Source: Candidatus Latescibacterota bacterium (lineage in GTDB: Bacteria; Latescibacterota; Latescibacteria; Latescibacterales; Latescibacteraceae). Taken from it: DNA of 64,000 nt. Made by a program: the position numbers and the translations under genes. Where the stretch lies: contig JAFGMP010000040.1 of NCBI GenBank assembly GCA_016927495.1, positions 3,585 through 67,584 of the forward strand. The letters run 5' to 3'. The notes under the pieces were generated by a model that worked only from the letters and a program-made list of their open reading frames with translations, made no database searches and had not been told where the DNA came from. Shown here piece by piece: positions 29,398 through 51,146 of the stretch; positions within the stretch are counted from its first letter, which is position 1, and each line of letters opens with the position of its first letter.

Positions 29398-29408
29398 ATA
29401 ATCAGAGC

Positions 29409-33117: not shown

Positions 33118-33122
33118 AAAAT

Positions 33123-35535: not shown

Positions 35536-36064
35536 TGTTTTCCTCCTTTATTTGGCCATTTAACATATATTTCTTATATTTATTATAGCACAATGGAATA
35601 AAGCATTAATTTATACTCTTATAAATCAGAATAATTATGATGTTTCTTTCATTGCTATAACTCTACATAGCTATTTATTATTCCTTTATTTAAGACTTTA
35701 TTATTGAAAAAAAGAAACATAAAATATCAATTTTTTATTATTATTGGAAAACACACAATTTCATTGGCATAATTTATTGGAATATTTGCAGTCAAAATTA
35801 AAGAATCATAATTAGTTATAATCACCGGTATATTTAACAAATTAAACCGAAAAAAATATATCTTTCCGGCATTATTATCAATTTTCTAAAAATACTTTCG
35901 GAACTTTAAAAAGATTTTGAACTCTAAAAATAAAAAAAGTTAGAAATTAAAGGTATACCTGGTCTTCAGAATGTACTTAGTAATAATTTGCTGAATTGTA
36001 CATTGAAATGACATGAAATCCCGGTAATTTTTTGATAAAACAGTTTATTGATACGGAGGATTAT

Positions 36065-37390
36065 GTGAGAAACACAGTTATGATGCTCAATTACCCCCTG
36101 AAAAAAGCATTACCCTGTATTGTTAGGATCCGAAAAAACCGTTTTTCAACTATTTTCATCTATGTAGTCATCCTCGGTCTTTTATCCATAACAACGTCAG
36201 CACAGGAAAACAAAGAATGGCCTTGCTTTCACTGTATAGACCGCAGCAACAAATCGACTGAATCAGATTTGCTGAAAAAATGGCCTGAGGAAGGTCCCAA
36301 ACTTTTATGGTCTGTTGCTGGTCTTGGTGAAGGATACAGTTCGGTTGCCATTGCCAATGGGTTTGTATTTACCGCCGGCAAAAAAGAAAATCAGACGTAT
36401 GTATTTGCATATGACCTGAAAGGAAAGTTGATATGGGAAAAGCCTAACGGTCAGTCATGGTCAACAACCATGTCATGGGCAAAAACATATACCGGCCCCA
36501 GAAGCACACCGACCTATAATGACGGTGTTGTATACCATCTCGGTGAAACAGGAAGACTGACAGCATTTGATCATAAAACCGGTACAGAAATTTGGTTTAT
36601 TAATCTGCAGGAAAAGTTTGATGCACAAATACCCGAATACGGCTACTCCGAATCTGTCCTGGTTGATGGCGATTACTTATACTGCAACCCCGTGGGGGAA
36701 AAAGCGTTTATGGTCTGCCTAAACAAAAAGGATGGAAAACAAATTTGGGCAAACACGGAAATATCCGGTGTAGCGGGTTACTCTTCCCCCGTTCTTATGA
36801 ATTTTGACGGATATAACCAAATTATTAATATGTCTTCAAATTGTGTTTATGGAGTGGATACAAGAACAGGTAATTTACTCTGGAGTATGAAATTTGAGGG
36901 TCAACAATCATTAAATAACACAGATCCCATCGTTCATGATGAATATGTATTTGTCTCAAGCGGTTACGGCAAAGGTTGCATGCTGATCAAACTTTTAGCT
37001 TCCGGAAAAACGATTATTCCGGAAATGGTCTGGCAGACGGAGTTAATGGACAACCATCATGGCGGTGTGATTCTACTAGACGAACATCTGTACGGTGCCG
37101 GTCATAATTCCCGCGGCTGGTTCTGTCTGGATTTTTTGACAGGCAAGGAACTCTGGAAATCGCGGGGTAAAGGCTCATTGGTTTTTGCCGACAACATGTT
37201 ATATTTACTGGAAGAAAATGGCCTTATGAAGTTAGTCACAGCCTCACATGAAAAATATGATGAAGTAAGCTTGTTTGAAGTACCTGATGGCGGCAGAGGT
37301 ATGCACTGGGCACATCCGGTTGTGTGCGGCGGACGATTGTATATACGCCACACGGATAAACTCTTTGCATATGACATCAAAAATCAATGA
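36065..37390 (+). CDS. Secreted PQQ/BamB-like beta-propeller repeat protein (paralog 1)
   Basis: A signal peptide is followed by GPKLLWSVAGLGEGYSSVAIANGFVFTAGK and periodic W/G/Y blade motifs. The start is ambiguous: GTG at 36065 after GGAGGA, or ATG at 36080. Confidence 0.7.
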   Translation: MRNTVMMLNYPLKKALPCIVRIRKNRFSTIFIYVVILGLLSITTSAQENKEWPCFHCIDRSNKSTESDLLKKWPEEGPKLLWSVAGLGEGYSSVAIANGFVFTAGKKENQTYVFAYDLKGKLIWEKPNGQSWSTTMSWAKTYTGPRSTPTYNDGVVYHLGETGRLTAFDHKTGTEIWFINLQEKFDAQIPEYGYSESVLVDGDYLYCNPVGEKAFMVCLNKKDGKQIWANTEISGVAGYSSPVLMNFDGYNQIINMSSNCVYGVDTRTGNLLWSMKFEGQQSLNNTDPIVHDEYVFVSSGYGKGCMLIKLLASGKTIIPEMVWQTELMDNHHGGVILLDEHLYGAGHNSRGWFCLDFLTGKELWKSRGKGSLVFADNMLYLLEENGLMKLVTASHEKYDEVSLFEVPDGGRGMHWAHPVVCGGRLYIRHTDKLFAYDIKNQ

Positions 37391-37510
37391 AAAATTGGTA
37401 TACCTAATGGATCCGAAGTGTAGGGGGCACGAATTATATGCCCTTACTCGAAGGGATTTTATTGATTAATTCCAACAGTTATGTTTATCACAGAGAGAAG
37501 GACCGGTATT

Positions 37511-38869
37511 ATGAAAAAGTGGCAGAAATGGTCACTGGGTATCGTCGGAATATTTGTGGCAGCAATATCTATTGCCGTTGTGATATTTTGGCCGACGATA
37601 TCGATTCTCAAAGGTACAGGGAAATTGAACGATGATACGGAAGCTATTCCCAGCGTTGCATCCCGTGATTTGAAACCGATGGAAAAAGGCAATGCCGATT
37701 GGATTTCCTGGTATGGGGCAAATGGAGATAACCGAAGCAAAGTCAAGGGAATCATTAAAGACTGGTCAGGCGGATTGAAGAAGCTGTGGGAAGTGAACTA
37801 TTTATGCCAGGGTAATTTAAGCGCAACATGGTCGGCTCCGGTCATTCAGGGCAACCGTCTTGTTGTCTGCGGACGGGATACGGATAAAGATCTTGTCTTC
37901 TGCCTCGATCCGGTGGACGGCAGTTTGCTCTGGAAAGTATCATACATGGCAAAAACCAGTACCAGCCACGGTTCCGGTCCCCGTGCCACACCATATATCG
38001 ATGACGACCGTGTATATACCTTTGGCCGCAGCGGTGATCTTTATTGCTGGAGTCTTTTTGACGGGAAACAAATATGGAAGATCAATGTTTCTGACGAAGG
38101 TGGTAAAGCGCCGCAGTGGGGGCACGCTTCCTCCCCACTTGTTCTGGGAAACCTTGTGTTAGTGCAGGGAGGAGGTTCCGCCGGAACTATTGCATACGAG
38201 AAAGCAACAGGGAAACTGACATGGAAAAGCGGACATGATATAGCCGGATATGCTGCTCTCGTTGAGATGAATTTTGCTGGTGAATCGGTGATACTTGCAT
38301 TTCATGGAAAGGGCATTTCCGCTCAGGATGCCGGGAATGGCAGCGAGCTTTGGAATGTACCGTGGGAAACATCGTACGATGTTAATGCTACCACGCCCAT
38401 AGTATTTGATGACAAAATTTTTATCACTTCCGGTTATGGTACGGGTTGTGAGTTGTTAAGGACAAATCGCTCCGGAGCGGATATTCTGTGGCGAAATGAA
38501 ATATTTTCATCGATACATTCCGATCCTTATGTAATTGACGGATTCTTGTATGGTTATTCAGGTGACAGCTCTCAAAACAAGGGCAAGTTTAAATGCATTA
38601 ACCTGCAGGACGGAACCGAACAGTGGTCAACTAATGATATGGGTTGGGGTACGTGTGTTTTGGTGGATGGATATTTACTGTGTATAGATATCAAAGGGAA
38701 CCTGTTTCTTATGAAACCCGATCCGTATAAATTTGTAAAAGTTTCTGAGTTGCCAAAAGCTCTTGGTAATGTAAGCGGACCTGTCTGGACTAAGCCTGTT
38801 TTAGCAAACGACCATCTCTATTTACGTTTCAAGCAGCGGCTTGTATGCTATGAGATTGTGAAGCATTAA
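37511..38869 (+). CDS. PQQ/BamB-like beta-propeller repeat protein (paralog 2) with an N-terminal TM anchor
   Basis: MKKWQKWSLGIVGIFVAAISIAVVIFW is a TM anchor. LKKLWEVNY...WSAPVIQGNRLVVCG is propeller-like. RBS GAGAAGGA. Confidence 0.7.
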   Translation: MKKWQKWSLGIVGIFVAAISIAVVIFWPTISILKGTGKLNDDTEAIPSVASRDLKPMEKGNADWISWYGANGDNRSKVKGIIKDWSGGLKKLWEVNYLCQGNLSATWSAPVIQGNRLVVCGRDTDKDLVFCLDPVDGSLLWKVSYMAKTSTSHGSGPRATPYIDDDRVYTFGRSGDLYCWSLFDGKQIWKINVSDEGGKAPQWGHASSPLVLGNLVLVQGGGSAGTIAYEKATGKLTWKSGHDIAGYAALVEMNFAGESVILAFHGKGISAQDAGNGSELWNVPWETSYDVNATTPIVFDDKIFITSGYGTGCELLRTNRSGADILWRNEIFSSIHSDPYVIDGFLYGYSGDSSQNKGKFKCINLQDGTEQWSTNDMGWGTCVLVDGYLLCIDIKGNLFLMKPDPYKFVKVSELPKALGNVSGPVWTKPVLANDHLYLRFKQRLVCYEIVKH

Positions 38870-38889
38870 ATGATTGAAAGGGAGGACTC

Positions 38890-39540
38890 ATGATTTTGAA
38901 GCAAAGTTGCTTCGGGTTTATTCTTTTATTATGTGTAGCGACAGGAGTAAAGGCACAAATTCACGGACTAAGTCTTGTCGATATGGCCGATCCCCCCGGG
39001 AAAGGGGCAAAACATTTCGTTGGCAGTACCTTTGTAGCTGAAACCTCGGCGCTTTACGGTGGACGTTTAGCATATGGTGTTACCGAAAGACTTCTGGTGT
39101 TCACGGATATGGGGGTGCATGATGCGGATTATTTCGATCCTGAGTTTTTGGGGCAGGCCGGTATGCGTTACACATTGCCCGTAAATCTCCCTTTCGATCT
39201 TGCTTTACGTATTACGACTATTCCCTATATTGCCAGCTACGAGCACTATGTCGAGTTTACCGTGGGTTTATTGGGGAGCCGTTATCTGGATTCCGGTTTA
39301 AACTGGGCAGTATACGGAAATGCGGGAATTGACCGTCAATTCTGGGAGCTAAAGGTTCCTTTCGATGCTGAAACAGCGGCTTTATATGGACAGGATTCCT
39401 ATATAGATAAAGGAAACAAAACGGAATTGTCGCTGACATTGGGATTAAGCAAAAAACTGACGAACTGGAGCCGATTTTTCATTGAAGCAGCCAATATCGA
39501 TGAATACTACGGTTGTACAGGGATTCGATTAGAACTGTAA
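38890..39540 (+). CDS. Small secreted or outer-membrane hypothetical protein
   Basis: Signal peptide MILKQSCFGFILLLCVATGVKAQ, 216 aa, Gly/Tyr-rich and beta-rich in composition. RBS GGGAGGA. Confidence 0.5.
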   Translation: MILKQSCFGFILLLCVATGVKAQIHGLSLVDMADPPGKGAKHFVGSTFVAETSALYGGRLAYGVTERLLVFTDMGVHDADYFDPEFLGQAGMRYTLPVNLPFDLALRITTIPYIASYEHYVEFTVGLLGSRYLDSGLNWAVYGNAGIDRQFWELKVPFDAETAALYGQDSYIDKGNKTELSLTLGLSKKLTNWSRFFIEAANIDEYYGCTGIRLEL

Positions 39541-39573
39541 TCCAATTTACCATTTCTGACGGTTGTGACCGTA

Positions 39574-41010
39574 ATGAATGAAAAAGCGATACATATTATA
39601 TCCACCGCAGGAACAATGATTCTCGGATTACTTGTAATGACATGGTTTCTGACGACAAACCCTGTTAAAAATCTTGTCGAACTCGTTCCCGGAATGGACA
39701 ACAGGCCCGCATCGATATCAACCGATCGGGAAAAAGTGGCAATTGGCGCTCTATATAAAGCTTTCGATGGAATTCCATCCGAAATAAAGGGCAGCTGGCC
39801 GCGCTTTCGCGGTGTGGATTATAATAATATCAGCAGCGAAGACATTAGACTGGCCGATGAATGGAGCAATACAGGGCCGCCTGTTTTATGGTCGGTCGAT
39901 TTAGGAGAAGGACATGCCGGCCCGATTGTAGCTAATGGCAGAGTATATCTTTTGGATTATGATGAAGAAAAAAGGGCTGATTTTCTACGCTGTTTTTCGT
40001 TTGATGACGGTAAAGAAATCTGGCGCCGCGGTTACGATGTGTTTATTAAACGAAATCACGGCATGTCACGGACAGTCCCTGCAGCCACTGATAAATTTAT
40101 TGTTACCATAGGCCCGAAATGCCAGGTCATGTGTGTCGATGCCGACACCGGGGCATTTCGATGGGGTATCGATCTGGAAAAAGAATATGGTGCTGAAATT
40201 CCATTGTGGTATACAGGCCAGTGTCCGTTAATCGATAATTCAATTGCTGTCATCGCGGTCGGAGGAAAATCATTAATAATTGCTGTGGATTGCGTAACCG
40301 GTACGGTTGTCTGGGAAACACCCAATCCGAATGACTGGAAAATGTCGCATTCTTCGATAATTCCCTATACCATTCACGGAAGAAAAATGTATGTATATTG
40401 CGCTTTGGGTGGTATTGCGGGAATATCGGCCGAAGATGATAGTGCAGGAAAAATTTTATTTGAAACCGATCTATGGAACAAAAATGTTATCGCGCCGTCC
40501 CCTGTGTATCTTGGAAACGGAAAACTGTTCGTAACATCGGGTTACGGCTCCGGCAGCATGATGCTCAATATCAGGGCTGAAAATAATACATTTGTTGTTG
40601 AACCGGTTCAGGAAATAAAACCCGGAGAAGGTATCTGCTCAGAGCAGCAAACCCCTTTGTACTATGATGGCCATTTATTCTGTATTTTACCGAAGGATGC
40701 CGGGCCGATGAGAAATCAGTTCGTTTGTTATTTACCGGATGATATCGGCAGACTTGTCTGGTCCAGCGGAACGACACATCGTTTTGGTCTTGGGCCGTAT
40801 CTAGTCGCCGATGATAAATTTTTTATCTTAAGTGACGAAGGGGTGTTAACGGTTATGAAGGCAAACACAAAAGAACCGATCATTCTGACACAGGCAAAGA
40901 TTTTGAACGGACATGATGCATGGGGACCGATGGCACTTGTGAACGGAAGGTTGTTAGCCAGAGATTCTCGCCGTCTGGTGTGTGTTGATATCCGGGCTTT
41001 AGATCGTTAG
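39574..41010 (+). CDS. PQQ/BamB-like beta-propeller repeat protein (paralog 3) with an N-terminal TM anchor
   Basis: TM IISTAGTMILGLLVMTWFL, then SWPRFRGVDYNNIS...GPPVLWSVDLGEGHAGPIVANGRVYLL, a WPxFRG-type propeller start. Confidence 0.7.
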   Translation: MNEKAIHIISTAGTMILGLLVMTWFLTTNPVKNLVELVPGMDNRPASISTDREKVAIGALYKAFDGIPSEIKGSWPRFRGVDYNNISSEDIRLADEWSNTGPPVLWSVDLGEGHAGPIVANGRVYLLDYDEEKRADFLRCFSFDDGKEIWRRGYDVFIKRNHGMSRTVPAATDKFIVTIGPKCQVMCVDADTGAFRWGIDLEKEYGAEIPLWYTGQCPLIDNSIAVIAVGGKSLIIAVDCVTGTVVWETPNPNDWKMSHSSIIPYTIHGRKMYVYCALGGIAGISAEDDSAGKILFETDLWNKNVIAPSPVYLGNGKLFVTSGYGSGSMMLNIRAENNTFVVEPVQEIKPGEGICSEQQTPLYYDGHLFCILPKDAGPMRNQFVCYLPDDIGRLVWSSGTTHRFGLGPYLVADDKFFILSDEGVLTVMKANTKEPIILTQAKILNGHDAWGPMALVNGRLLARDSRRLVCVDIRALDR

Positions 41011-41073
41011 AAATGATTTTGACAGAGTATTTTTTCATTTTCATTGAGTGATGGTTAAACGGAGATTTTAATA

Positions 41074-42066
41074 ATGACACCTGAAAAGAAAAACGACCTT
41101 GTACTGTTATGGTTGATAATAGGTGTTTCCGTTATCGGTACAATTTACTTTGTCTGGTCCGCTGTGTCGGAAAATACACGTTCGGTTCAGGAAAATCCGT
41201 ATAAATACAATATCGATTTCTTCAAAGAAATTGATCCGGCACTACTGATATATGCGGAGGTCAATACTATACCGCTCAGATTTCATACGGTATCGGGTAT
41301 TGCGGTCGATGCCAAAGATAACTTATATGTTACAGGTGATGAAAGCGTATCGATATTTACTAGTGAAGGAAACGTTCAATCAACTTTTCCCACGGATCAA
41401 ACTGCTCTTTGTCTTGATGTCGATGTTAACGGCGACCTATATCTGGGTATGAAAAATCACATTGAGATTTTTAACAGTAACGGTATTAAAAAAGCTCAGT
41501 GGGAGGATTTGGGAGTTAAAGCGTATATAACCTCGATTGCGATTACGGATGAATATGTCTTTGCCGCCGATGCCGGGAATCGTATTGTCCTAAAATATGA
41601 TAAAAATGGAAAATTCATACAAAAAATCGGAGAAAAAGATGAAAGCAGGGATATTCCCGGATTTATTGTCCCCAGTCCGTATTTTGATGTCAGCGTTGAC
41701 CCGGATGGTTTTCTCTGGATAGTGAATCCCGGACGTCATACGCTTGAAAACTATACACCGGAAGGCGACCTTAGATCATCATGGGGTGAATTTTCAATGA
41801 CAATCGAGGGCTTTTGCGGATGCTGTAATCCTACACATATAACTATTATGGATAGTGGTAATTTTGTAACGAGCGAAAAGGGAATTGCGAGAATCAAAGT
41901 CTTCAACAGACTGGGGAATCTTGAAGCAGTCGTTGCCGGCCCGGATAGGTTCAATGAGGAAACGGCGGGACTTGACCTCGCGTCTGATTCAAATGGTAGA
42001 ATATATATTTTGGATCCAATGAGAAAAGCGGTGCGGATTTTTGAGAAAAACGATCCCGGAGTATAA
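41074..42066 (+). CDS. Membrane-anchored NHL-repeat (6-bladed beta-propeller) protein
   Basis: TM LVLLWLIIGVSVIGTIYFVW. The NHL-like blades include GIAVDAKDNLYVTGD, GDLYLG, PYFDVSVDPDGFLWIVNPG and RIYILDP. CGCCNP is a Cys cluster. Confidence 0.6.
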   Translation: MTPEKKNDLVLLWLIIGVSVIGTIYFVWSAVSENTRSVQENPYKYNIDFFKEIDPALLIYAEVNTIPLRFHTVSGIAVDAKDNLYVTGDESVSIFTSEGNVQSTFPTDQTALCLDVDVNGDLYLGMKNHIEIFNSNGIKKAQWEDLGVKAYITSIAITDEYVFAADAGNRIVLKYDKNGKFIQKIGEKDESRDIPGFIVPSPYFDVSVDPDGFLWIVNPGRHTLENYTPEGDLRSSWGEFSMTIEGFCGCCNPTHITIMDSGNFVTSEKGIARIKVFNRLGNLEAVVAGPDRFNEETAGLDLASDSNGRIYILDPMRKAVRIFEKNDPGV

Positions 42067-42069
42067 CAA

Positions 42070-42306
42070 ATGAAACATAAACCCGAAATAAATGATAAAA
42101 GAAGAGCAATACTGAAACGCGGAGCACGCTTTTTTTTTCTTGGCGGAATTGCGCTTCTATGCGGATTATTTGGAATGCGTAAAAGCCGTCTATCAGACAG
42201 AAATTTTGGTTGTGAAATTGATCTGCCCTGCAGGGAATGCTCGAAATTCAACGGTTGTACTATTTCAAAAGCTGCGGAAACAAAAGCGAGTAAAGAGTCA
42301 AAATGA
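42070..42306 (+). CDS. Small (78 aa) protein with a Tat-like N-terminus and a C-x5-C-x2-C-x5-C cluster
   Basis: KRRAILKRGARFFFLGGIALLCGLFG is followed by CEIDLPCRECSKFNGC. It is tightly packed between the NHL gene and the Tat-ferredoxin gene, but whether it is really coding is uncertain. Confidence 0.35.
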   Translation: MKHKPEINDKRRAILKRGARFFFLGGIALLCGLFGMRKSRLSDRNFGCEIDLPCRECSKFNGCTISKAAETKASKESK

Positions 42307-42318
42307 TAAAGGTTATTC

Positions 42319-42903
42319 ATGGCAGAAAACGATTCGAAAAACAAGGTCAACAGGCGCGATGTTATGCGTTTCAGCCTTAATACTTTTGCCGGACTCGCTG
42401 TTGGCGGTGTGTCGGGTATGCTAATCACAAACTCGAACTCCAGGGAAATGGTCTGGCAGATCGATCCAAACGTCTGTATTCAGTGCGAAAAATGTTCGAC
42501 AAATTGTGTGCTGCCTCAATCCGCGGTGAAATGCGTGCATTCCTATTCGATGTGCGGATATTGCGATTTATGCAGCGGATATCTCGAACCAGGCGCTGTA
42601 TCCCGTGATACAGGCGCTGAAAATCAACTGTGCCCGACCGGTGCGATAAAAAGAAAATTTATCGAAGATCCTTATTTTCAATACACGATCGATGAAGAAC
42701 TCTGTATCGGGTGTGGCAAATGTGTTAAAGGTTGCGGTTCTTTCGGTAATGGCTCCCTGTATCTTCAGGTTCGTCATGATCTATGCTTGAATTGCAACGA
42801 ATGTTCTATCGCCAGATCATGTCCATCCCAGGCGTACAGGCGTGTTCCTGCCGACTCTCCCTACATATTAAGGGGGGATGAAGGAGCTAAGAATAGCAGT
42901 TAA
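42319..42903 (+). CDS. Tat-exported 4x[4Fe-4S] ferredoxin (NapG/MauM-like)
   Basis: The Tat motif NRRDVMRFSLNTFAGLAVGG is present. Four Cys clusters follow: CIQCEKCSTNC, CGYCDLCSGY, CIGCGKCVKGC and CLNCNECSIARSCP. Confidence 0.7.
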   Translation: MAENDSKNKVNRRDVMRFSLNTFAGLAVGGVSGMLITNSNSREMVWQIDPNVCIQCEKCSTNCVLPQSAVKCVHSYSMCGYCDLCSGYLEPGAVSRDTGAENQLCPTGAIKRKFIEDPYFQYTIDEELCIGCGKCVKGCGSFGNGSLYLQVRHDLCLNCNECSIARSCPSQAYRRVPADSPYILRGDEGAKNSS

Positions 42904-42977
42904 AATTTTGACATTAAATTGCATTAAAAAATTTATTAGCCTCGGATGAACGCGGATATAATACTAAAATATTTTGA

Positions 42978-44306
42978 TTGAAGATTATGATAAAAGTAAA
43001 AAAACTTATAATGTCACTAAACATTCTGCTCTTCAAACCATCTTTTGTGTTATCACAAGTGGTGGAACGGTTCCCCAAACCGGATTTTCAATCAGATTAT
43101 ACCCGGCCACTGTTGCAGACTCCTGAGCCGCGGATTAAGTTGTATGAATATTTCGACCTGTTTGTATTAATCACCGCTCTTTCACTGGCTTCATATTTTG
43201 CATTGAAACTCCGTTCACGGACCAAAATGTTTTTATTGATGATATTCTGCCTTCTCTATTTCGGTTTTTTCCGAAAGGGGTGTATTTGCCCGGTCGGCTC
43301 GGTTCAAAATGTCAGTCTTGCGCTGTTTGATGCTGCCTATACTATTCCTGCGACCGTCATTGCGTTTTTTGCTTTACCGCTGGTGTTTACTTTATTTTTC
43401 GGACGAACATTCTGTGCCGCCGTATGCCCTTTAGGAGCCATTCAGGATGTGGTCATCTTTAAACCGGCTGTTGTAAGTCCCTGGATTGCTCAGGTTCTCG
43501 GAATGATTCCATACCTGTATCTCGGGCTGGCAGTTCTGTTTGCATCGACCGGCGCCGGATTTATTATCTGTCAGTATGATCCTTTTGTGGGTTTTTTCAG
43601 ATTTGGCGCGTCTTTTAATATGATTGCTTTGGGAATATCCCTGTTAATTCTGGGAACTGTTGTCGCACGGCCCTATTGCAGATTTCTCTGTCCGTACGGC
43701 GTTATATTGAACTGGATGTCACGACTGTCGAAATGGCATGTTACCATTACCCCTGCGGAGTGTATTAATTGCCGTCTCTGTGAGGAATCCTGTCCGTTCG
43801 GAGCCATTAACATGCCTGTTATGGAGCATCCGGTAAATCGTGGAAAAAGCATTCGTTTTCTGGCAGTGCTATTTATTCTGTTGCCGGTCGTTGTCATGGG
43901 AAACGGGTGGGTGTTTTCACGATTGTCAGTTCCGCTCTCAGGCCAGCATTTCACCGTATCGTTGGCTGCAAAAATTCAGTCCGAAAACTCAGGTATAACT
44001 ACCGGGACAACTGAAGAAACCGACGCTTTCCGTGCCTCAGGAAAAACTGTTGAGGAACTCTTCCGGGAAGCATCGGTAATTCGACAGAAATTTCGGACCG
44101 GTGGATGGATTTTTGGAGGATTTTTAGGATTAATAATCTGCTTAAAATTGATAAACTTGACCGTTATAAGGCGACATGACGATTATACTGCGGATTCGGG
44201 AACTTGTTTCAGCTGTGCACGGTGTTTTTCCTATTGTCCGATCGAACAGGTCCGGCTTGGTAACATGGATCCCGATGAGGCTTCGAAGATAAAAAAATCA
44301 CGTTAA
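42978..44306 (+). CDS. Integral-membrane polyferredoxin (NapH/MauN/FixG-like)
   Basis: Multiple TM helices carry CAAVCPLGAIQD and CRFLCPYGVIL (CxxxCP) motifs. Two cytoplasmic ferredoxin motifs follow: CINCRLCEESCP and CFSCARCFSYCP. Confidence 0.7.
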   Translation: MKIMIKVKKLIMSLNILLFKPSFVLSQVVERFPKPDFQSDYTRPLLQTPEPRIKLYEYFDLFVLITALSLASYFALKLRSRTKMFLLMIFCLLYFGFFRKGCICPVGSVQNVSLALFDAAYTIPATVIAFFALPLVFTLFFGRTFCAAVCPLGAIQDVVIFKPAVVSPWIAQVLGMIPYLYLGLAVLFASTGAGFIICQYDPFVGFFRFGASFNMIALGISLLILGTVVARPYCRFLCPYGVILNWMSRLSKWHVTITPAECINCRLCEESCPFGAINMPVMEHPVNRGKSIRFLAVLFILLPVVVMGNGWVFSRLSVPLSGQHFTVSLAAKIQSENSGITTGTTEETDAFRASGKTVEELFREASVIRQKFRTGGWIFGGFLGLIICLKLINLTVIRRHDDYTADSGTCFSCARCFSYCPIEQVRLGNMDPDEASKIKKSR

Positions 44307-44339
44307 CGAATTCTCAAATTACCATTTGAAAACAGTGAT

Positions 44340-46034
44340 ATGAACGAAAATAATACGTCCCAAATATGGTACACTGCCGCAAAAAGAATTGCCGCTGTAT
44401 CGGCTGCTTTTGCCCTGATTCTGAGCGTATTGCTGGTTATCAATTACATTCAGACAAAAAGGATCGATCCTCTGAACAGCAAAGCATTAAATCAGTTAAT
44501 GGTCGAATTGCAGAAAAACCAGAATGACGAAGCTCTCAAAGAACAAATCAGAGCGCTCGATTTACTTGCAAGAAAAGCCTATTTCACCAACCTCTGGCAA
44601 GTTCGAACCGGCAGCTTATTACTCTTCGCATTCGTTTTGACCTTCCTGATCGCGTTAAAGTACATAAGTTCTTTTCAAACCCGGTTTCCTGATCTGACAG
44701 CGGTTCCTGACTATGAACAAATGTGGGAGAACAGACTTTTTGCACGAAAATATATAATCTTTACCGGTTTGGGATTGTTTGTTTTTGCCTTCGTCCTGAG
44801 TGTCTTGACCGAGGATGGATTGTCACGCGCAGGAATGGAGAAAGGTGAATCAGCGGATGAGGTTTCAACATTACCGGGTATAGAAGAAATCAAACAGAAC
44901 TGGCCGAATTTCAGAGGCCCGGAAGGTATCGGCATGGCTTATAACATCACGGTACCGACACAATGGGACGGCAGAACCGGTGAAAATATTCTGTGGAAAA
45001 CCGAAATTCCTGTACACGGCTTCAATTCACCTATAATCTGGGGAAAAAAAATATTTTTATCCGGCGCGGACCGTAACACAGAAGTTGTGTATTGTATCGA
45101 TGCGGATTCCGGTGAAATACTCTGGCAAACCGAATTGAACGACATCCCCGGTTCACCCGTTGATCGTCCTGACAATACGGAAGATACCGGATTTGCCGCT
45201 CCGACAATGGCGACAGACGGACTCCGGGTATTTATTCTCTTTGGCACGGGTGATGTGGCGTGCCTGGATTTTGATGGGAACAGGATATGGGCAAAAAATA
45301 TAGGCGTTCCGGAAAATCATTACGGCCATTCCTCATCGTTGATCACATTCCGTAATTTACTATTGATACAGTATGATCAAAACTCCGGCGGCCATCTTAT
45401 TGCTTTAAAAACCGATACCGGGGATTTGGTTTATGATCAGCAGCGTGACATCGAAATATCATGGGCATCCCCTATCCTTGTCAATACCGGAAAAAGAGAC
45501 GAAATCATCCTTAATTCAAGCCCTGATGTCATATCACATGATCCTTTAACAGGTAAAGAACTCTGGCGAATTGACTGTATGTCGGGTGAGGTTGCGCCGT
45601 CGCTTGCCTATGCGGACGGAATCGTTTTTGCTGTCAATCAATATGCTAAACTGGCGGCGATAAAACTTAATGGCGCTCCGGAGATACTATGGGAATCCGA
45701 AGACGATCTTGCCGAAGTTTCAAGCCCTGTAGCTACTAAAGATTTTGTGTTTGTTGCAGCGAGTTACGGAACGATATCCTGTTACGACAGCAAAACGGGT
45801 GAACGGTACTGGTTTGAGGATTTACCGAAAGGTTTCTACTCCTCACCTGTTGTAGTTGGAGACAATGTGTATCTAATGGATATGGCGGGCACGATGTATA
45901 TTTTTAAAACCATGAAAGAATTTAGCCTTGTCAACACCTGCGAACTTGGAGAATCGGCGGTTACAATCCCGGCTTTTATGCATAACAGAATTTACATACG
46001 TGGGTTTAAACATCTTTACTGTATCGGTGATTAA
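44340..46034 (+). CDS. PQQ/BamB-like beta-propeller repeat protein (paralog 4) with an N-terminal multi-TM segment
   Basis: There are three hydrophobic helices in the first 170 aa. Then NWPNFRGPEGIGMAY...ILWKTEIPVHGFNSPIIWGKKIFLSGA starts the propeller. Confidence 0.7.
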   Translation: MNENNTSQIWYTAAKRIAAVSAAFALILSVLLVINYIQTKRIDPLNSKALNQLMVELQKNQNDEALKEQIRALDLLARKAYFTNLWQVRTGSLLLFAFVLTFLIALKYISSFQTRFPDLTAVPDYEQMWENRLFARKYIIFTGLGLFVFAFVLSVLTEDGLSRAGMEKGESADEVSTLPGIEEIKQNWPNFRGPEGIGMAYNITVPTQWDGRTGENILWKTEIPVHGFNSPIIWGKKIFLSGADRNTEVVYCIDADSGEILWQTELNDIPGSPVDRPDNTEDTGFAAPTMATDGLRVFILFGTGDVACLDFDGNRIWAKNIGVPENHYGHSSSLITFRNLLLIQYDQNSGGHLIALKTDTGDLVYDQQRDIEISWASPILVNTGKRDEIILNSSPDVISHDPLTGKELWRIDCMSGEVAPSLAYADGIVFAVNQYAKLAAIKLNGAPEILWESEDDLAEVSSPVATKDFVFVAASYGTISCYDSKTGERYWFEDLPKGFYSSPVVVGDNVYLMDMAGTMYIFKTMKEFSLVNTCELGESAVTIPAFMHNRIYIRGFKHLYCIGD

Positions 46035-46037
46035 TAC

Positions 46038-48398
46038 TTGACTGTGACTATAGACAAAGAAAACATCATCGCTGAAACAGACCGGATCGTGCAAAAAACA
46101 GGCACGGCTGAAAGCGCTGTAATCCCTATTCTGCATGCCATCCAGAAAAAATACAACTACCTCCCCGAATCTGCGCTCAGAAGAGTGTGTGAAATTACCG
46201 ATATTACTCCTGCCTCGATCACCGGTGTATCCACATTCTACACACAATTTCGTCACACTCCGGTCGGTAAACACATAATCCATGTTTGTGTCGGTACCGC
46301 CTGCCATGTTAAAGGCGCCCAACTGGTCTATGATGCCTTTTTTCGGGAACTGGGAATAACGGGAAATCAGGATACCGATTCAAACGGTTTATTCACCGTG
46401 CAAAAGGTAGCATGCCTCGGTTGCTGTACGCTCGCTCCTGTAGTACAGATCGATGATGTAACTTACGGGCATGTCAAAACTAACACTGTTTCCACTGTTC
46501 TTCAGGATTTTCTGTCGGGCCGGACTAAAAAAGGTGAATACCGGCCATCGGATAAAACCTCTTCCGGACAAGTTGGTGAAATCAGAATCGGGCTGGGATC
46601 ATGCTGCGTCGCTAGCGGCAGCAACAAGGTCCGCCAGGAACTGGAACAGTGCCTTATTGATACAGGCATAAAGACTCAGGTTAAACGAGTCGGATGTGTG
46701 GGAATGTGTCACCGTACACCGCTTATGGAAGTGATAACACCCGATCAGGAACCGGTGTTATATGATAAAGTTCAACCTAAGGACGTAAGAAGGATACTGC
46801 TCACCCATTACCGGCCCAAATCATTGACAAAACAGTTGAAGAATACAGCGGTTGGTTTTCTGGAAAACATTCTGGAAAACAATCAACCAAATGAACCTAT
46901 CCGGCAATCATTCAATACTCGCGACCCTCATATAAACTCATTCTTAGGCACACAGGTGCATATTGCCACGGAATATTGCGGTGAAATAGATCCATTGGAT
47001 ATCGGAGAATATAGGTTACGAGATGGATTCAGGGCGCTGGTAAAGTGTTTAAATGAGTATGATCCTCAGGAGATAATCGAATTTATCAGATCGAGCGGAC
47101 TAAGGGGAAGAGGCGGCGCGGGGTTCTCAACCGGTGAAAAATGGTACATAGTTCATAAGTCTGACGACGAGAAAAAATACCTGATATGCAACGGCGACGA
47201 GGGCGATCCCGGAGCTTTTATGGACCGGATGATACTGGAATCGTACCCCTTCAGAGTGATCGAAGGAATGATTATAGCCGCAAAGGCTGTTGGTGCGCAT
47301 GAGGGTTTTCTCTATATTCGGGCGGAATATCCTCTTGCTGTAGAACGTATCAAAAACGCTATTTCCCAGTGCGAACACAATGGGTTACTCGGTAATAATA
47401 TTCAGGACAGTGATTTCTCCCTTACCTTGAAGGTTATGGAGGGAGCAGGCGCTTTTGTTTGCGGAGAGGAGACCGCCCTGATCTCATCTATAGAAGGGCA
47501 CCGGGGAATACCCCGCTTCCGCCCACCCTATCCGGCACAAAAAGGTCTGTGGGGACATTCGACGCTGGTCAACAACTGTGAAACCTATGCGACTGTGCCC
47601 TGGATTTTACGAAACGGTGCAAAGGAATTTTCACAAATGGGGACAGACAAAAGCAAAGGTACCAAAGTATTCTCTCTGGCCGGAAAAATTGCCCGGGGTG
47701 GTTTGATCGAAGTACCGATGGGTATCACTATCCGTGAAATTGTGGAGGAAATAGGCGGCGGTATCGAATACGGCAGACAATTCAAAGCTGTTCAGATCGG
47801 CGGTCCTTCGGGTGGATGTATTCCTGCCGAGATGGCCGACATCAGAGTCGATTATGAAGATTTGACAAAAGCAGGCGCGATGATGGGGTCGGGCGGACTA
47901 CTGGTGATGGATGAGAACGATTGTATGGTGGATATTGCCCGGTATTTTCTGACATTCACCTGCGATCAGTCATGTGGAAAGTGCACTTTTTGCCGTATCG
48001 GAACACGGTATATGCTTGATATCCTCAACAAAATATGCGCCGGTAAGGGAACTTTGACCGATCTGCAAAAACTTGAAGAAATCGCCTGTAAGACAAAACA
48101 AAGAAGCCTTTGCGGACTGGGGAAAACCGCTCCGAACCCTGTATTGACCACTCTGAGATATTTCAGGGAGGAATATGAGGCTCATTTGAAAGGAATCTGC
48201 CCGGCGAAACGATGCAAGGATCTTATAAAATATTCAATCGATGACAGTTGTATCGGCTGCACCATCTGCGCTCAAAAATGCCCGGTGGGAGCGATTTCGA
48301 TAATGCCCTATCAGAAGCATATCATCAAACAGGATGTCTGCATAAAATGCGGTACATGTAAACAGGTTTGTCCGACAGATTCCGTGGTGATTCTATGA
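46038..48398 (+). CDS. NuoE-like [2Fe-2S] + NuoF-like (FMN/NADH, [4Fe-4S]) + 2x[4Fe-4S] ferredoxin fusion protein (HndC/HydB/FdsB-like)
   Basis: The NuoE part is HVCVGTACHVKGA...CLGCCTLAPVVQIDDVTYG. The NuoF part is GLRGRGGAGFSTGEKW (FMN), GEETALISSIEG (NADH) and SCGKCTFCRIG. The C-terminus is CIGCTICAQKCP...CIKCGTCKQVCP. Confidence 0.8.
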   Translation: MTVTIDKENIIAETDRIVQKTGTAESAVIPILHAIQKKYNYLPESALRRVCEITDITPASITGVSTFYTQFRHTPVGKHIIHVCVGTACHVKGAQLVYDAFFRELGITGNQDTDSNGLFTVQKVACLGCCTLAPVVQIDDVTYGHVKTNTVSTVLQDFLSGRTKKGEYRPSDKTSSGQVGEIRIGLGSCCVASGSNKVRQELEQCLIDTGIKTQVKRVGCVGMCHRTPLMEVITPDQEPVLYDKVQPKDVRRILLTHYRPKSLTKQLKNTAVGFLENILENNQPNEPIRQSFNTRDPHINSFLGTQVHIATEYCGEIDPLDIGEYRLRDGFRALVKCLNEYDPQEIIEFIRSSGLRGRGGAGFSTGEKWYIVHKSDDEKKYLICNGDEGDPGAFMDRMILESYPFRVIEGMIIAAKAVGAHEGFLYIRAEYPLAVERIKNAISQCEHNGLLGNNIQDSDFSLTLKVMEGAGAFVCGEETALISSIEGHRGIPRFRPPYPAQKGLWGHSTLVNNCETYATVPWILRNGAKEFSQMGTDKSKGTKVFSLAGKIARGGLIEVPMGITIREIVEEIGGGIEYGRQFKAVQIGGPSGGCIPAEMADIRVDYEDLTKAGAMMGSGGLLVMDENDCMVDIARYFLTFTCDQSCGKCTFCRIGTRYMLDILNKICAGKGTLTDLQKLEEIACKTKQRSLCGLGKTAPNPVLTTLRYFREEYEAHLKGICPAKRCKDLIKYSIDDSCIGCTICAQKCPVGAISIMPYQKHIIKQDVCIKCGTCKQVCPTDSVVIL

Positions 48399-49996
48399 AA
48401 AAAATCAACCTGACAATAAATAATCTCACAGTATCGGTAAACGACGGCAGCACCATACTCGATGCTGCCGAAACATTGGGAATTGCCATTCCCACACTCT
48501 GTTATGTGCCCGGTTACGAGCCTAATGCCACCTGTATGTTCTGTGTCGTTCATGAGTTGACAACCGACTCTCTGATTCTTGCATGTTCCATGCCTGCGAA
48601 AGAGGGAATGATTATTGAAACAGATACTGCCAGAGTATATGAAGCCCGTAAAGATACTCTCGATCTGTTATTAAGCGAGCATGTAGGGGATTGTGAGGCG
48701 CCCTGCCAGCGCACCTGCCCCACTAATATGAATATCCCGCTTATGATCAGGCAGATTAAAGAGAAAAAATTTGACGAAGTGCTCATCACCGTCAAGAAAA
48801 ACATCGCTTTACCGGCAGCTATGGGGCGTATCTGTCCGGCGCCGTGCGAAAAAGCCTGTAACCGTACATCCTATGACAATCCCGTTGCTATATGCTTATT
48901 AAAACGATTCGTCGCCGATAGAGACCTTGCGAAGGAAATACCGTACCGGCCTGAGATTTTTTCGAAATCGGGGAAAAAGGTGGCTGTTGTCGGAGCGGGG
49001 CCGGCAGGTCTTTCGGCTGCGTATTATCTTTCCCGGTATGGTCATGATTGCAGTCTTTTTGACCGAAATAAAAAACCAGGAGGACAGCTTCAATACGGTG
49101 TTCCCGCCGACAAACTGCCAAGACCGGTTTTGGATGCCGAGATTGAACAAATACTTACTTTAGGCGTCGAATTTATGAGCGAACAAATACTGGGAAAAAA
49201 TTTTAGTCTGGGTGAACTGCGCAAGGATCACGATGCGGTTGTTCTTGCGCTGGGTACAATAAACACTGATGTAGTAATCGATCCTGATTTGCAATATTCC
49301 CCTGCCGGAATAACCGTCAACAGAAAAACATTTGAAACCTCTATTCCCGGAGTATTTGCCGGTGGTAATGTGATATCGGAAGGCAAAATGGCGATTCGTT
49401 CCGCCGCGCACGGTAAATTTATAGCCTATTCGGTTAACCGGTATGTAAGCGGTTTATCGCTTACCGGTTATCCACAAAGATTCAATTCGATGATGGGGAA
49501 ATTAATCGAAGGCGAGGACAAAGAGTTTATTAAAGAGGCGGAGGTGTTCGACCGGGTAGAACCCGCAGGGGGATTGAATGCAGGGTATACCGTCGACGAG
49601 GCGGTCAATGAATCGAAACGGTGTTTCCACTGCGACTGTAGAAAACCGGAATCATGTAAACTAAGGCAATATTCCGAAAAGTACGGTGCAGACAGAAGAC
49701 GGTTTAAGATCGATCGAAGAAAACCGTTTCGAAAAATAGTGCAGCATGAATTGGTCAATTTCGAACCGGGGAAATGTATTCATTGTAACATCTGTGTCGA
49801 AATCACTAAAAAAGCGGGAGAAAAACTCGGTTTCACATTTATAAACCGTGGGTTTGATGTTCAAATGACTGTTCCCTTTAATGAATCTCTGAATGCAGGG
49901 CTTCGAAAAGCGGCGAAAGAGTGTGTCGACTCCTGCCCGACTGCGGCTCTATCCTGGCGAAACGGCGAAGAAGGATTACATCGTGATACAACATAA
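48395..49996 (+). CDS. Fe-S flavoprotein with a NuoG-N-terminal-like [2Fe-2S], [4Fe-4S] motifs and a GltD-like FAD/NAD(P) oxidoreductase domain
   Basis: The ATG overlaps the upstream stop (ATGA). The motifs are LTINNLTVSVNDGSTILDAAETLGIAIPTLCY...CMFCVV, CEAPCQRTCP, CPAPCEKACN and VAVVGAGPAGLSAAYYL (Rossmann). The C-terminus has CFHCDC...CIHCNICVE. Confidence 0.75.
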   Translation: MKKINLTINNLTVSVNDGSTILDAAETLGIAIPTLCYVPGYEPNATCMFCVVHELTTDSLILACSMPAKEGMIIETDTARVYEARKDTLDLLLSEHVGDCEAPCQRTCPTNMNIPLMIRQIKEKKFDEVLITVKKNIALPAAMGRICPAPCEKACNRTSYDNPVAICLLKRFVADRDLAKEIPYRPEIFSKSGKKVAVVGAGPAGLSAAYYLSRYGHDCSLFDRNKKPGGQLQYGVPADKLPRPVLDAEIEQILTLGVEFMSEQILGKNFSLGELRKDHDAVVLALGTINTDVVIDPDLQYSPAGITVNRKTFETSIPGVFAGGNVISEGKMAIRSAAHGKFIAYSVNRYVSGLSLTGYPQRFNSMMGKLIEGEDKEFIKEAEVFDRVEPAGGLNAGYTVDEAVNESKRCFHCDCRKPESCKLRQYSEKYGADRRRFKIDRRKPFRKIVQHELVNFEPGKCIHCNICVEITKKAGEKLGFTFINRGFDVQMTVPFNESLNAGLRKAAKECVDSCPTAALSWRNGEEGLHRDTT

Positions 49997-51146
49997 ATCA
50001 ATTACCTTTATAATCGTTTTTTTCTCTCTGCTTTGCGGCTGTTCGGAAAAAAAACACACTGAACGCACAACTGAATACCACGTGACTGAAGTATGGCCTG
50101 TTTTTCGGAGTGATTTTAATTTATCGGGAGTCACCGATGCTCAACTTCCGGATACCATGAAATCGTTGTGGTCTTTCAAAACGGGTGGCCCTGTTATTTC
50201 CTCCCCGGTAATCGGTTTCAGGACAGTCTATATCGGGTCAACCGACGGCAAAGTGTATGCGATCGGACTACGTGACGGTAAAAAAACATGGGAATTTGAT
50301 ACGGGGGACGATATCGAAGCCTCTCCTATGCTGCTCGACCAAACGATATATATCGGTAATTTAAGAGGTAACTTTTTCGCCCTCGATGCTCAAACCGGAC
50401 GGGCCAGATGGACGTATAAAATCGACGGCGATATCATGGGTTCGGCAAACTGGGTGAATGTTCCGGGCAGCCCTAAAAATCTGGTTCTGGTCGGCAGTTA
50501 CGATACGAAAATGTATTGTTTTGAGTCCGACACCGGCAACCTTAAGTGGACATACGAAACCAACTATTATATTAACGGAGCACCTGCAACTGATGGACAT
50601 AATGTTGTTTTCGGCGGTTGCGATGAACAGCTTCACATATTATCGGCGATGGACGGAACAAAAAAAGGAGAGGTATGGGCCGGTTCTTATATAGCCGGTT
50701 CGGCGGCGCTGGTGGATAATCGGGCGTATGTGGGTCATTACGGCGGCAAATTAGTGTGTATCGATGTGGTTGACCGGAAAATTGTATGGGAATATGGGGA
50801 TAAAGAGGGTGGAAGCGAGTTTTTTTCCTCTCCGGCAGTGGGGAAAGACAAAGTTCTCATAGGGTCACGGGATAATTTTCTGCACTGTGTCGACCGAAAG
50901 ACAGGGCAAATGATATGGAAATTCCAAACCCGCGGCGAAGTTGACAGTTCACCGGTGATCGTAAACGACAAGGTTGTATTCGGATCGTCTGACGGCAGAT
51001 TCTACATGGTTACACTTGAGGATGGCAAAGAAGTATGGTCGTATGAAATCGGCTCTTCAATCACAGGAAGTCCTGCGGTAATTGACGGCATGATTGTAAT
51101 TGGTGCGGAAGACGGCCGTGTTTATGCATTCGGAGATGGCACATGA
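49983..51146 (+). CDS. PQQ/BamB-like beta-propeller lipoprotein (paralog 5)
   Basis: FIIVFFSLLCGCSEKK is a lipoprotein-type signal. VWPVFRSDFNLSG...LWSFKTGGPVISSPVIG is propeller-like. A probable GTG start at 49983 overlaps the upstream gene. Confidence 0.65.
   Translation: MIQHKSITFIIVFFSLLCGCSEKKHTERTTEYHVTEVWPVFRSDFNLSGVTDAQLPDTMKSLWSFKTGGPVISSPVIGFRTVYIGSTDGKVYAIGLRDGKKTWEFDTGDDIEASPMLLDQTIYIGNLRGNFFALDAQTGRARWTYKIDGDIMGSANWVNVPGSPKNLVLVGSYDTKMYCFESDTGNLKWTYETNYYINGAPATDGHNVVFGGCDEQLHILSAMDGTKKGEVWAGSYIAGSAALVDNRAYVGHYGGKLVCIDVVDRKIVWEYGDKEGGSEFFSSPAVGKDKVLIGSRDNFLHCVDRKTGQMIWKFQTRGEVDSSPVIVNDKVVFGSSDGRFYMVTLEDGKEVWSYEIGSSITGSPAVIDGMIVIGAEDGRVYAFGDGT

Follow-up and report, generated by a model that had tools for sequence, protein, structure and literature searches.

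A conserved gene cluster in Latescibacterota linking periplasmic beta-propellers to a candidate all-iron-sulfur electron conduit

Conserved linkage of the propeller and redox genes

What do an exported ferredoxin and a membrane polyferredoxin serve when their genes are interleaved with those of beta-propeller proteins and of an NADH-linked flavoprotein pair, and no terminal reductase is recognisable beside them? The question is raised by a stretch of 64,000 nucleotides (nt) from Candidatus Latescibacterota bacterium (GCA_016927495.1, contig JAFGMP010000040.1, 3,585-67,584 of the forward strand; hereafter the window), in which the listing of open reading frames (ORFs) and typing with hidden Markov models (HMMs) revealed an operon-like unit of about 18 densely packed genes, all on the plus strand (36032-60667; Table 1). 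We propose that the unit encodes an electron conduit that consists only of iron-sulfur centres, needs neither quinone nor heme and would lead through the inner membrane to a periplasmic propeller complex, a proposal which we judge about equally likely to be right or wrong. Genes were typed with the Pfam and NCBIfam HMMs, anchoring was assigned by a hydropathy scan, and folds were compared by searches with AlphaFold2 (AF2) models.

A profile of the NapH-like protein (G7) was searched against the GTDB species representatives and gave 551 confirmed loci, of which the best 80 were kept; all window proteins were then compared by BLASTP with the stop-to-stop ORFs of these 80 loci, and the occupancy of a gene was counted only for the loci whose flank was long enough to judge. 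In these loci, which come from anaerobes of at least seven phyla, the gene set is linked. The order on one strand, (G1-like, one to five copies)-G4-G5-G5a-G6-G7-G8-G9-G10-G11-(G12)-G13-G14, is shared by Latescibacterota, KSB1, Aminicenantes/Acidobacteriota, Calditrichota, many Bacteroidota, one Chlorobiota metagenome-assembled genome (MAG) and one Lentisphaerae MAG, and the Bacteroidota loci include those of the cultured Ancylomarina euxinus and Perlabentimonas gracilis and of Marinifilum and Labilibaculum genomes. In Planctomycetota the cluster is rearranged, with the G11-G14 block before G4 and the G1/G2-like genes after G10, and all genes are kept together. Occupancy was highest for the central genes (G5, 64/65; G4, 59/62; G8, 66/69; G9, 56/57; G10, 52/53) and lower for those at the 3' side (G11, 46/52; G12, 33/47; G13, 30/46), and G9 adjoins the NapH-like gene in 56 of the 57 testable loci. 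The junctions are tight or overlapping (median distances between genes, -64 to +26 nt). Median identities between the window and Bacteroidota proteins were 60% for G6 and G9, 53% for G4, 52% for G13, 50% for G7, 48% for G12, about 44% for G5, G8 and G10, 43% for G11, 38% for G14 and 34% for the G1-like proteins; by this measure the propeller G4 is as constrained as the electron-transfer proteins.

The initial annotation had recognised no terminal reductase; no known one was found in the window, nor does one recur as a family among the 80 related loci. When the unmatched ORFs of at least 150 amino acid residues from these loci were clustered in search of a hidden terminal enzyme, only lineage-local neighbours, each in five loci or fewer, were obtained; since no family occurred in more than 5 of the 80 loci, the cluster has no associated hydrogenase, formate dehydrogenase, molybdoenzyme, NosZ, RdhA or cytochrome. 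The heme c motif CxxCH is absent from all 18 cluster proteins, and the gene content of the unit includes no quinone-, heme- or molybdenum-type components. The conserved order, together with the lack of any further family in more than five loci, argues that the propellers are not casual neighbours. The initial annotation had allowed that the ferredoxin and flavoprotein genes might belong to an operon of their own, and had suggested examining co-occurrence across genomes; synteny of the propellers, the NHL protein, the Tat (twin-arginine translocation) ferredoxin, the NapH-like protein and both flavoprotein genes is conserved in the 80 loci and across phyla. Its view of one uncharacterised extracytoplasmic redox unit without a classical terminal enzyme also agrees with the order G4-G5-(G5a)-G6-G7-G8-G9-G10-G11 kept in these loci.

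With more than 550 species-level genomes matched in one scan, the cluster is abundant. Among its hosts are Bacteroidales/Marinilabiliales, Latescibacterota, KSB1, Aminicenantes, Calditrichota and Phycisphaerae, which belong to phyla with a dominant part in the carbon turnover of anoxic sediments. Metagenome homologs, counted as clusters at 90% identity, numbered at least 7916 for G7 (E<=1e-10), at least 6175 for G4 and 4924 for G5, and carry generic names only; every gene of the cluster is annotated generically despite its strong conservation. No description of the cluster was found in the literature on NapH-like, NuoF, PQQ/BamB propeller and NosR systems or on the host taxa. In four loci labelled as 'uncultured Eubacteriales' MAGs (L004, L005, L009 and L010) the diderm-type cluster is complete and shares 64-66% identity with the Aminicenantes versions; the 'Eubacteriales' labels look doubtful.

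The cytoplasmic NADH module and the proposed iron-sulfur relay

Pfam typing of G9 (PF01257, PF01512, PF10589 and Fer4 at 735-782) confirmed the fusion of NuoE, NuoF and ferredoxin parts that had been read from the sequence. Its first 160 residues correspond to the NuoE-like C subunit (BfuC), and residues 181-785 match 9bov_B (E=1e-213), NfnB 9n5u_B (7e-207) and StnB 8oh5_B (2e-204) in the PDB; over the full length of BfuB, G9 aligns to the chains of 9bov, 9n5u, 8oh5, 7t2r and 7q4v (E 1e-186 to 1e-213), and among PDB sequences it matches the Nfn/Stn-type B subunits better than bifurcating hydrogenases or NuoF of Complex I. The HydB-type N-terminal [2Fe-2S] site, the FMN/NADH motifs of NuoF and the C-terminal 2x[4Fe-4S] ferredoxin-like domain are all kept, the cluster Cys residues and GRGGAGF are conserved in 58 orthologs, and the length is 781-794 residues in 56 orthologs. 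By its domains G9 is thus a BfuC-BfuB fusion, containing the parts by which BfuB and BfuC are defined in the Bfu family. The C-terminal 2x[4Fe-4S] domain forms the ferredoxin site in Nfn-Bfu (PMC12018979).

The second flavoprotein, G10, has the NuoG-type [2Fe-2S] N-terminus, GltD-type clusters and FAD domain, in accordance with the earlier description of a NuoG/GltD-like protein. Compared with StnC (8oh5_C) and 9bov_A, its residues 10-302 correspond to target residues 1-292 and its residues 313-528 to about 451-671. The NuoG-type [2Fe-2S] and [4Fe-4S] motifs that mark the Bfu partner align to those of StnC/9bov_A, with conserved Cys motifs. However, the NADPH-binding Rossmann domain of about 160 residues is lacking: StnC residues ~292-450 have no counterpart, and residue 302 of G10 joins 313. 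The FdhF-like C-terminal half of StnC/NfnA (about 500 residues) is lacking as well. All G10 orthologs are 500-581 residues long (n=51), compared with 963-1178 for the Stn/Nfn counterparts, and only one GxGxxG motif is present in 49 of 52. The absence of the NADPH domain sets G10 outside the Nfn-Bfu/Stn transhydrogenases.

The third substrate of Stn and Nfn is NADPH at this FAD, from which a mid-potential Fe-S path to the bifurcating FMN is fed (PMC10482914, PMC12018979). Because G10 has no NADPH domain, NADP(H) cannot be the third substrate here, and the predicted cytoplasmic partners of G9-G10 would be only NADH and, probably, ferredoxin. The pair had been annotated as NAD(P)H-oxidising; one NADH site on G9 agrees with this, but NADPH does not, as G10 has no nicotinamide-binding domain. 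Rather than a plain dehydrogenase pair, G9 and G10 are a Bfu-type (StnAB-like) core with a truncated StnC/NfnA-like subunit, and probably the pair is systematically mis-annotated, since it would be labelled Nfn-type despite the missing NADPH site. G9 covers the full length of BfuB and adds the BfuC (NuoE-like) domain, and G10 covers the [2Fe-2S], GltD-type [4Fe-4S], FAD and NuoG-type Fe-S parts of StnC/NfnA. In contrast to StnABC/NfnABC (8OH5, 9N5U, 9BOV), BfuC and BfuB form one chain, and G10 lacks the NADPH-binding and FdhF-like domains. A survey of the family lists hydrogenase, Nfn, Fdh, Wor, Bam, Rub, Por, Codh, F420, Nuo and Mbh types, with 17 BfuB clades left without assignment and no type linked to a membrane NapH-like protein or to propellers (PMC9304861); unlike the described types, the genes here are embedded among a membrane and periplasmic gene set.

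On the membrane side, G6 had been described as a Tat-exported ferredoxin with four [4Fe-4S] clusters, and its R12-R13 signal and 16+1 Cys residues in four CxxCxxC motifs (predicted clusters) are at least 95% conserved in 64 orthologs. The 252-nt gap that seems to precede it is filled by a small gene, G5a, which begins 3 nt past the stop codon of G5 and ends 12 nt before G6. G5a has a twin-arginine motif (KRRAILKRG), one hydrophobic helix and the Cys pattern C-x5-C-x2-C-x5-C, and most related loci have a similar peptide at the corresponding place. By strict motif search it was found in 59 of 77 loci, always with the spacing 5-2-5; it stands alone in 47 and is fused to the N-terminus of G6 in 12, in two phyla (11 Bacteroidales and one Pirellulales), where it takes the place of G6's own Tat signal. 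Because of these Rosetta-stone fusions, G5a and G6 are considered to act together in the same compartment. An exhaustive HMMER search gave 44 representative clusters of homologs, all of 66-105 residues, and no Pfam or NCBIfam family matched. G5a is probably a Tat-targeted, membrane-anchored metal or Fe-S subunit and partner of G6. A name suggested by one hit, 'formate dehydrogenase region TAT target', was rejected since it reflects a weak resemblance of the Tat signal (E=0.12), and the family was left unassigned. In a single metagenome protein (P0279, 408 residues) G5 is fused in frame to G5a; the four Cys residues would then be cytoplasmic, contradicting the G5a-G6 fusions, so a lost stop codon or a sequencing or assembly artefact is possible.

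The pair G6 and G7 had been called NapG/NapH-like. The NapGH-like architecture stands, but membership of the NapG and NapH/MauN families does not: G6 scored 20.9 bits against NapG (NF007012; cut-off 269), and G7 scored 43.5 bits against NapH/MauN TIGR02163 (cut-off 213) and 36.9 bits against NapH NF007013 (cut-off 234), while the general PF12801 (Fer4_5) was matched at 47.7 bits (cut-off 22). G7 begins with a signal-like segment followed by an invariant RFPKPDF peptide, and has about seven transmembrane helices (TMs) by hydropathy and three Cx(1,3)CP motifs (GCxCP, FCxxxCP and YCxxxCP). A TM hairpin with a loop of about 65 residues lies between the two CxxCxxCxxxCP motifs of G7, whereas the NapH/MauN model has four TMs, two CX3CP motifs and adjacent [4Fe-4S] motifs, and neither the hairpin nor the extra GCxCP. 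By the positive-inside rule applied to the hydropathy profile alone, GCxCP and the invariant C198/D201 would face the periplasm, where they could form a redox centre.

NapH-like proteins are a recognised modular transmembrane element of extracytosolic redox systems, linking cytoplasmic or membrane electron pools to a periplasmic enzyme, and in a survey of them NuoF-like donors were seen only in MsrQ-like clusters and not beside NapH-like proteins (PMC8238504). The present cluster resembles NapGH/NosGH/MauMN and NosR/PceC-type systems in its Tat-exported four-cluster ferredoxin and its polytopic CX3CP protein with two cytoplasmic [4Fe-4S] motifs. It differs in lacking an FMN-binding domain, ApbE and a partner of the NapA, NosZ, methylamine dehydrogenase or RdhA kind, in the extra four-Cys Tat subunit G5a, and in its likely donor, which would be a docked NADH/ferredoxin module and not quinol.

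The best scores of G9/G10 against Nfn and Stn structures, and the NapH-type Fer4_5 domain of G7, are what would be expected if an Nfn/Stn-type transhydrogenase and a NapGH-type quinol dehydrogenase, serving a reductase elsewhere, simply lay side by side among unrelated BamB-like proteins. Nevertheless, the interleaved order is conserved across phyla, with the rearranged Planctomycetota loci included, the NADPH domain by which Nfn and Stn are defined is missing from G10, the NapG and NapH scores are far below the cut-offs and no reductase recurs in the flanks, and we regard such a chance neighbourhood as very improbable.

The propellers and the possible fate of the electrons

The five PQQ_2/BamB-like propellers and one NHL propeller of the initial annotation were recovered with PF13360 (G1, G2, G4, G8 and G11; E 5e-18 to 1e-43) and PF01436 (G5), and their anchoring is as varied as it had stated, with a signal peptide in G1, one TM in G2, G4 and G5, three TMs in G8 (17-35, 91-109 and 135-153) and an LLCGC lipobox in G11, the only lipobox among propellers that otherwise have TM anchors or signal peptides. 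The WPxFRG motif, by which these propellers had been described, is clear in G4 and G8 (and in D1-D3 as WPQWRGP), but is a variant in G11 and degenerate in G1/G2. G8, a core component, always stands after G7. The eight window propellers of this kind form five subfamilies (G1/G2, G4, G8, G11 and D1-3) with 21-30% identity between subfamilies; G1 and G2 share 29%, and D1-D3 share 49-64% among themselves. The G1-like class is peripheral and variable, with one to five copies in relatives, upstream of G4 in most loci. Copies related to D1-D3 were seen upstream of the cluster in Aminicenantes-like loci.

G4 is the most conserved periplasmic component, with 100 positions at least 95% identical across phyla. 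Its AF2 model (pLDDT 82.5) is an 8-bladed propeller, and 41 of its 90 conserved propeller positions lie in the loops before the innermost blade strands (hypergeometric p=9e-6) and cluster on one face around the central channel, including E115, H165, R169, Q219, C220, H262, Q361, Q362, R406, D451 and W453. The remaining conserved Cys residues, buried at equivalent points of the repeat, probably have a structural role. The gathering of conserved polar residues on one face suggests a putative ligand pocket, whose invariant residues match none of the known sites that we could recognise. From this conservation, G4 is likely to hold the substrate- or partner-binding site, and we propose it as the ligand-binding or catalytic subunit.

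The assignment of G4 as a pyrroloquinoline quinone (PQQ) enzyme or another known enzyme was rejected, as sequence and profile searches of the PDB gave nothing below E=1e-3 and scaffold folds ranked first; its profile reached chains of PQQ alcohol dehydrogenases at E 0.002-0.1. BamB and Rv3035 led the fold search, followed by tetrathionate hydrolase and PQQ alcohol dehydrogenase as generic 8-bladed relatives; the fold is common to all of these, with identities of 12-16%, and G4 differs from BamB in its N-terminal TM anchor in place of the lipoprotein anchor. HMM typing for PQQ, which had been suggested as a check, did not bear out a PQQ assignment for any of the propellers: against the PQQ-dehydrogenase model TIGR03075 (cut-off 480) the scores were 36-39 bits for G1, G2 and G8, 88 bits for G11 and about 31 bits for D1, and G4 had no match at E<=0.01 to TIGR03075 or TIGR03074. 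The BamB models (TIGR03300/NF008351) likewise gave 23-64 bits, and 150.8 bits for G11, below the cut-off of 285.

The AF2 model of G5 (pLDDT 84.9) is a canonical 6-bladed NHL propeller, nearest in fold to TRIM2/3, Brat and the PknD sensor. It carries the motif F-x-G-C-C-N-P, in which C250, C251, N252 and P253 are invariant and open an inner strand that follows a disordered loop; we speculate that this is a redox-active vicinal dithiol or a metal site. A role of G5 as a lactonase or other enzyme was rejected, as the fold search gave binding-type NHL domains and not SMP-30/PON-type enzymes.

Starting from the observed gene content, domain architecture, NADPH-domain deletion, synteny and G5a-G6 fusion, we infer the path NADH/ferredoxin <-> G9 <-> G10 <-> G7 <-> G6/G5a <-> propeller assembly. 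G9 and G10 would form a Bfu-family (HydBC/StnAB-type) cytoplasmic module whose third-substrate site is gone. With the NADPH domain deleted and the port open, the simplest assumption is that G10, by its exposed Fe-S/FAD end, passes electrons to the cytoplasmic [4Fe-4S] clusters of G7, towards which this end would be turned. G7 would be partnered by the Tat-exported G6 and the small four-Cys subunit G5a, and these would serve the membrane-anchored propellers G4, G8 and G11, the NHL protein G5 and the variable paralogs, with the ABC (ATP-binding cassette) pair G13/G14 and the family 4 glycosyltransferase (GT4) G12 as conserved accessory proteins that would assist in assembly or handle the substrate. 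The third couple of Bfu enzymes is normally at about -400 mV (PMC9304861), and the enzymes are reversible (PMC9304861, PMC12018979). As the third couple is near this potential and every carrier is of the low-potential Fe-S type, outward flow is favoured, in which NADH and reduced ferredoxin would be confurcated as in the HydABC hydrogenases, and low-potential electrons (~-400 mV) would be delivered to a periplasmic or extracellular acceptor, a possible sink for fermentative sediment bacteria. By analogy with the confurcating HydABC [FeFe]-hydrogenases, the BfuBC-type core could use NADH and reduced ferredoxin jointly for the reduction of a third acceptor, as a fermentative sink; unlike them, the cluster has no H-cluster domain, and its predicted third branch leads out of the cytoplasm by way of a membrane Fe-S protein. 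Our guess for the acceptor is a sulfur compound (polysulfide or thiosulfate). The tetrathionate hydrolase fold and NsoC, a close StnC homolog described as an NADPH-dependent sulfur oxidoreductase (PMC10482914), may be taken as leads only to reduced-sulfur chemistry.

Several points weigh against the proposed conduit. The closest folds are those of scaffolds (BamB and Rv3035 for G4) and binding domains (TRIM NHL and PknD for G5), no redox cofactor or metal site was assignable to any of the propellers, and a GT4 protein with a Lol/MacB-type ABC transporter suits envelope biogenesis better than a simple reductase. The topology of G7, its contact with G10 and the bifurcation or confurcation are based on hydropathy and homology, and the other contacts, the direction of flow and the identity of the acceptor are likewise inferred. 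We found no expression, phenotype or biochemical data on the cluster in the literature, and a paper on Black Sea isolates gives no phenotype attributable to it.

Some of these points lead to a different explanation, in which the cluster is a redox-dependent machine for envelope biogenesis or maturation: the propellers would be scaffolds, the GT4 and ABC proteins would make or move an envelope component such as a glycolipid, lipoprotein or glycan, and the Fe-S chain would give reducing power for periplasmic modification or for propeller maturation. We consider this rather unlikely. It is favoured by the absence of a cofactor motif in any propeller, by the conservation of the GT4 protein, the LolD-like ATPase and the duplicated FtsX permease in the cluster, and by the fold of G4, for which BamB and Rv3035, a BamB-like protein of mycobacteria, are the best structural matches; the latter was deposited with FecB (9p3f), in a complex that is reported to mediate arabinofuranosyltransferase activity (PMC13041763). 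However, the GT4 gene is absent from the Marinifilaceae clusters and the ABC pair from some loci, and the conserved polar central pocket of G4 is more like a ligand site than like the lateral interface of BamB. To our knowledge, moreover, no envelope-assembly pathway needs a low-potential donor of the Bfu type.

The same chain of carriers might also run inward, with one or more propellers oxidising a low-potential periplasmic donor and the electrons passing through G6/G5a, G7 and G10 to G9, which would bifurcate them to NAD+ and ferredoxin in the manner of bifurcating hydrogenases or formate dehydrogenases working in uptake. The hosts, however, are fermenters, which need electron sinks rather than sources, and the propellers have neither a PQQ-enzyme signature, as seen from their scores against TIGR03075, nor another assignable redox cofactor. 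We therefore regard inward flow as unlikely, even though Bfu enzymes are reversible with third substrates near -400 mV (PMC9304861, PMC12018979), extracytosolic PQQ-type oxidases have been put forward as electron donors of NapH-like systems (PMC8238504), and the NHL protein G5 has a weak SMP-30/lactonase-like match (PF08450, E=9e-4).

The kinds of components are known (the Bfu family, NapH-like extracytosolic systems, PQQ_2/NHL propellers and type VII ABC transporters); new, as far as the literature shows, are the apparent docking of a Bfu module to a NapH-like conduit, the four-Cys Tat subunit and the restriction of the periplasmic partners to propellers. Outward electron transfer through the proposed conduit could go with a further step, which we put forward tentatively: a new class of extracytoplasmic redox enzyme system in which a Bfu module, the first to be wired to the periplasm, is plugged directly into a NapH-like protein and drives catalysis at cofactor-poor 8-bladed propellers without molybdenum, heme or quinone, with G4 as the active subunit. 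It is possible, if somewhat doubtful, that such a system is a widespread fermentative electron sink or low-potential periplasmic reductase, acting for instance on sulfur compounds, of FCB, PVC and Acidobacteriota bacteria in anoxic sediments, and that its terminal chemistry is categorically new is a suggestion we make with equal reserve. If the conduit is real, it would extend the Bfu family from soluble or proton-pumping enzymes to trans-membrane electron export; it would also give a role to the very large 'PQQ-binding-like/BamB-like' propeller families of anaerobes unable to make PQQ, and point to an electron sink or envelope process that has gone unrecognised in fermentative bacteria of sediments.

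Extent of the unit and its surroundings

The components named in the initial annotation were found at their positions and on the plus strand by ORF listing and HMM typing, and their list is extended here (Table 1). The cluster had been taken to begin at 36065, which is an internal GTG of G1, and to end at 51146; the unit reaches beyond that end to include the GT4 gene, the ABC pair and three secreted propellers encoded in tandem (D1-D3), and G5a had been overlooked.

Table 1. Genes of the operon-like unit, with positions in the window
Gene	Position	Strand	Description
G1	36032-37390	+	Signal-peptide PQQ_2/BamB-like 8-bladed propeller; PF13360 E=1.5e-26
G2	37481-38869	+	PQQ_2 propeller on a single TM (18-36); PF13360 E=5e-34
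G3	38890-39540	+	Secreted (signal-peptide) protein of 216 residues, between two propeller genes
G4	39565-41010	+	8-bladed PQQ_2 propeller, single-TM anchor
G5	41074-42066	+	6-bladed NHL propeller, single-TM anchor; PF01436
G5a	42070-42306	+	Twin-arginine, four-Cys protein of 78 residues
G6	42319-42903	+	Tat-signal (RR) polyferredoxin; Fer4 families
G7	42978-44306	+	NapH-like integral-membrane polyferredoxin; PF12801 (Fer4_5)
G8	44340-46034	+	N-terminal three-TM domain and PQQ_2 propeller; PF13360 E=4e-35
G9	46038-48398	+	NuoE, NuoF and 2x[4Fe-4S] fusion (BfuC-BfuB)
G10	48368-49996	+	BfuA-like; NuoG-type [2Fe-2S] N-terminus, GltD-type clusters, FAD domain
G11	49893-51146	+	Lipoprotein 8-bladed propeller, PQQ_2/ACSF4-type; PF13570 204 bits, PF13360 150 bits
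G12	51143-52426	+	GT4 glycosyltransferase (Pfam)
G13	52426-53121	+	LolD/MacB-type ABC ATPase; PF00005
G14	53121-56411	+	Duplicated FtsX/MacB-type permease of 1096 residues; PF02687 x2, PF12704
D1	56614-57939	+	Signal-peptide WPQWRGP-type propeller
D2	57969-59354	+	Propeller, 64% identity to D1
D3	59330-60667	+	Propeller, 49% identity to D1 and D2

G12-G14 lie directly 3' of G11, with stop and start codons that overlap or abut. G12 is usually present in the related clusters, and its N-terminal PGxGGxFYCxNCxRD motif (containing a CxxC), unusual for GT4, is conserved in 36 orthologs. G13 and G14 are syntenic; G13 scored 266.3 bits against LolD (TIGR02211; cut-off 307.75), below the threshold for that family, and G14, with two large periplasmic domains in the TM scan, scored 28.8 bits against LolC/E (cut-off 362.45) and is of the ADOP type instead. 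G3 matched no Pfam or NCBIfam model and was found only in the Latescibacterota-like loci L001 and L003, and is outside the core of the cluster.

No riboswitch or other RNA element was found in the whole window with Rfam at gathering thresholds, and promoter and terminator scans of the window gave signals no better than those of shuffled sequences. Downstream of the unit, a convergent region on the minus strand (60678-63984) encodes a glycoside 3-dehydrogenase-like oxidoreductase (BT_2158 family) and a protein with an alpha-L-rhamnosidase-type jelly-roll domain, with no conserved adjacency to the cluster in other loci. Upstream, a lipoprotein gene on the minus strand (34309-35535; Spondin_N, Big_7 and CarboxypepD_reg domains) lies between the unit and a chemotaxis cluster, judged to be unrelated (24695-35535; Cache-MCP, a CheA-like protein with Hpt, CheW and REC domains, CheB and a REC-SpoIIE phosphatase). 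Further upstream, a type VI secretion cluster on the plus strand (85-21525) holds IcmF/TssM-like, TssA/VasJ, TssC/VipB, TssF, TssG, ClpV and VgrG genes, together with a DUF2169 gene and one for a long pentapeptide-repeat protein.

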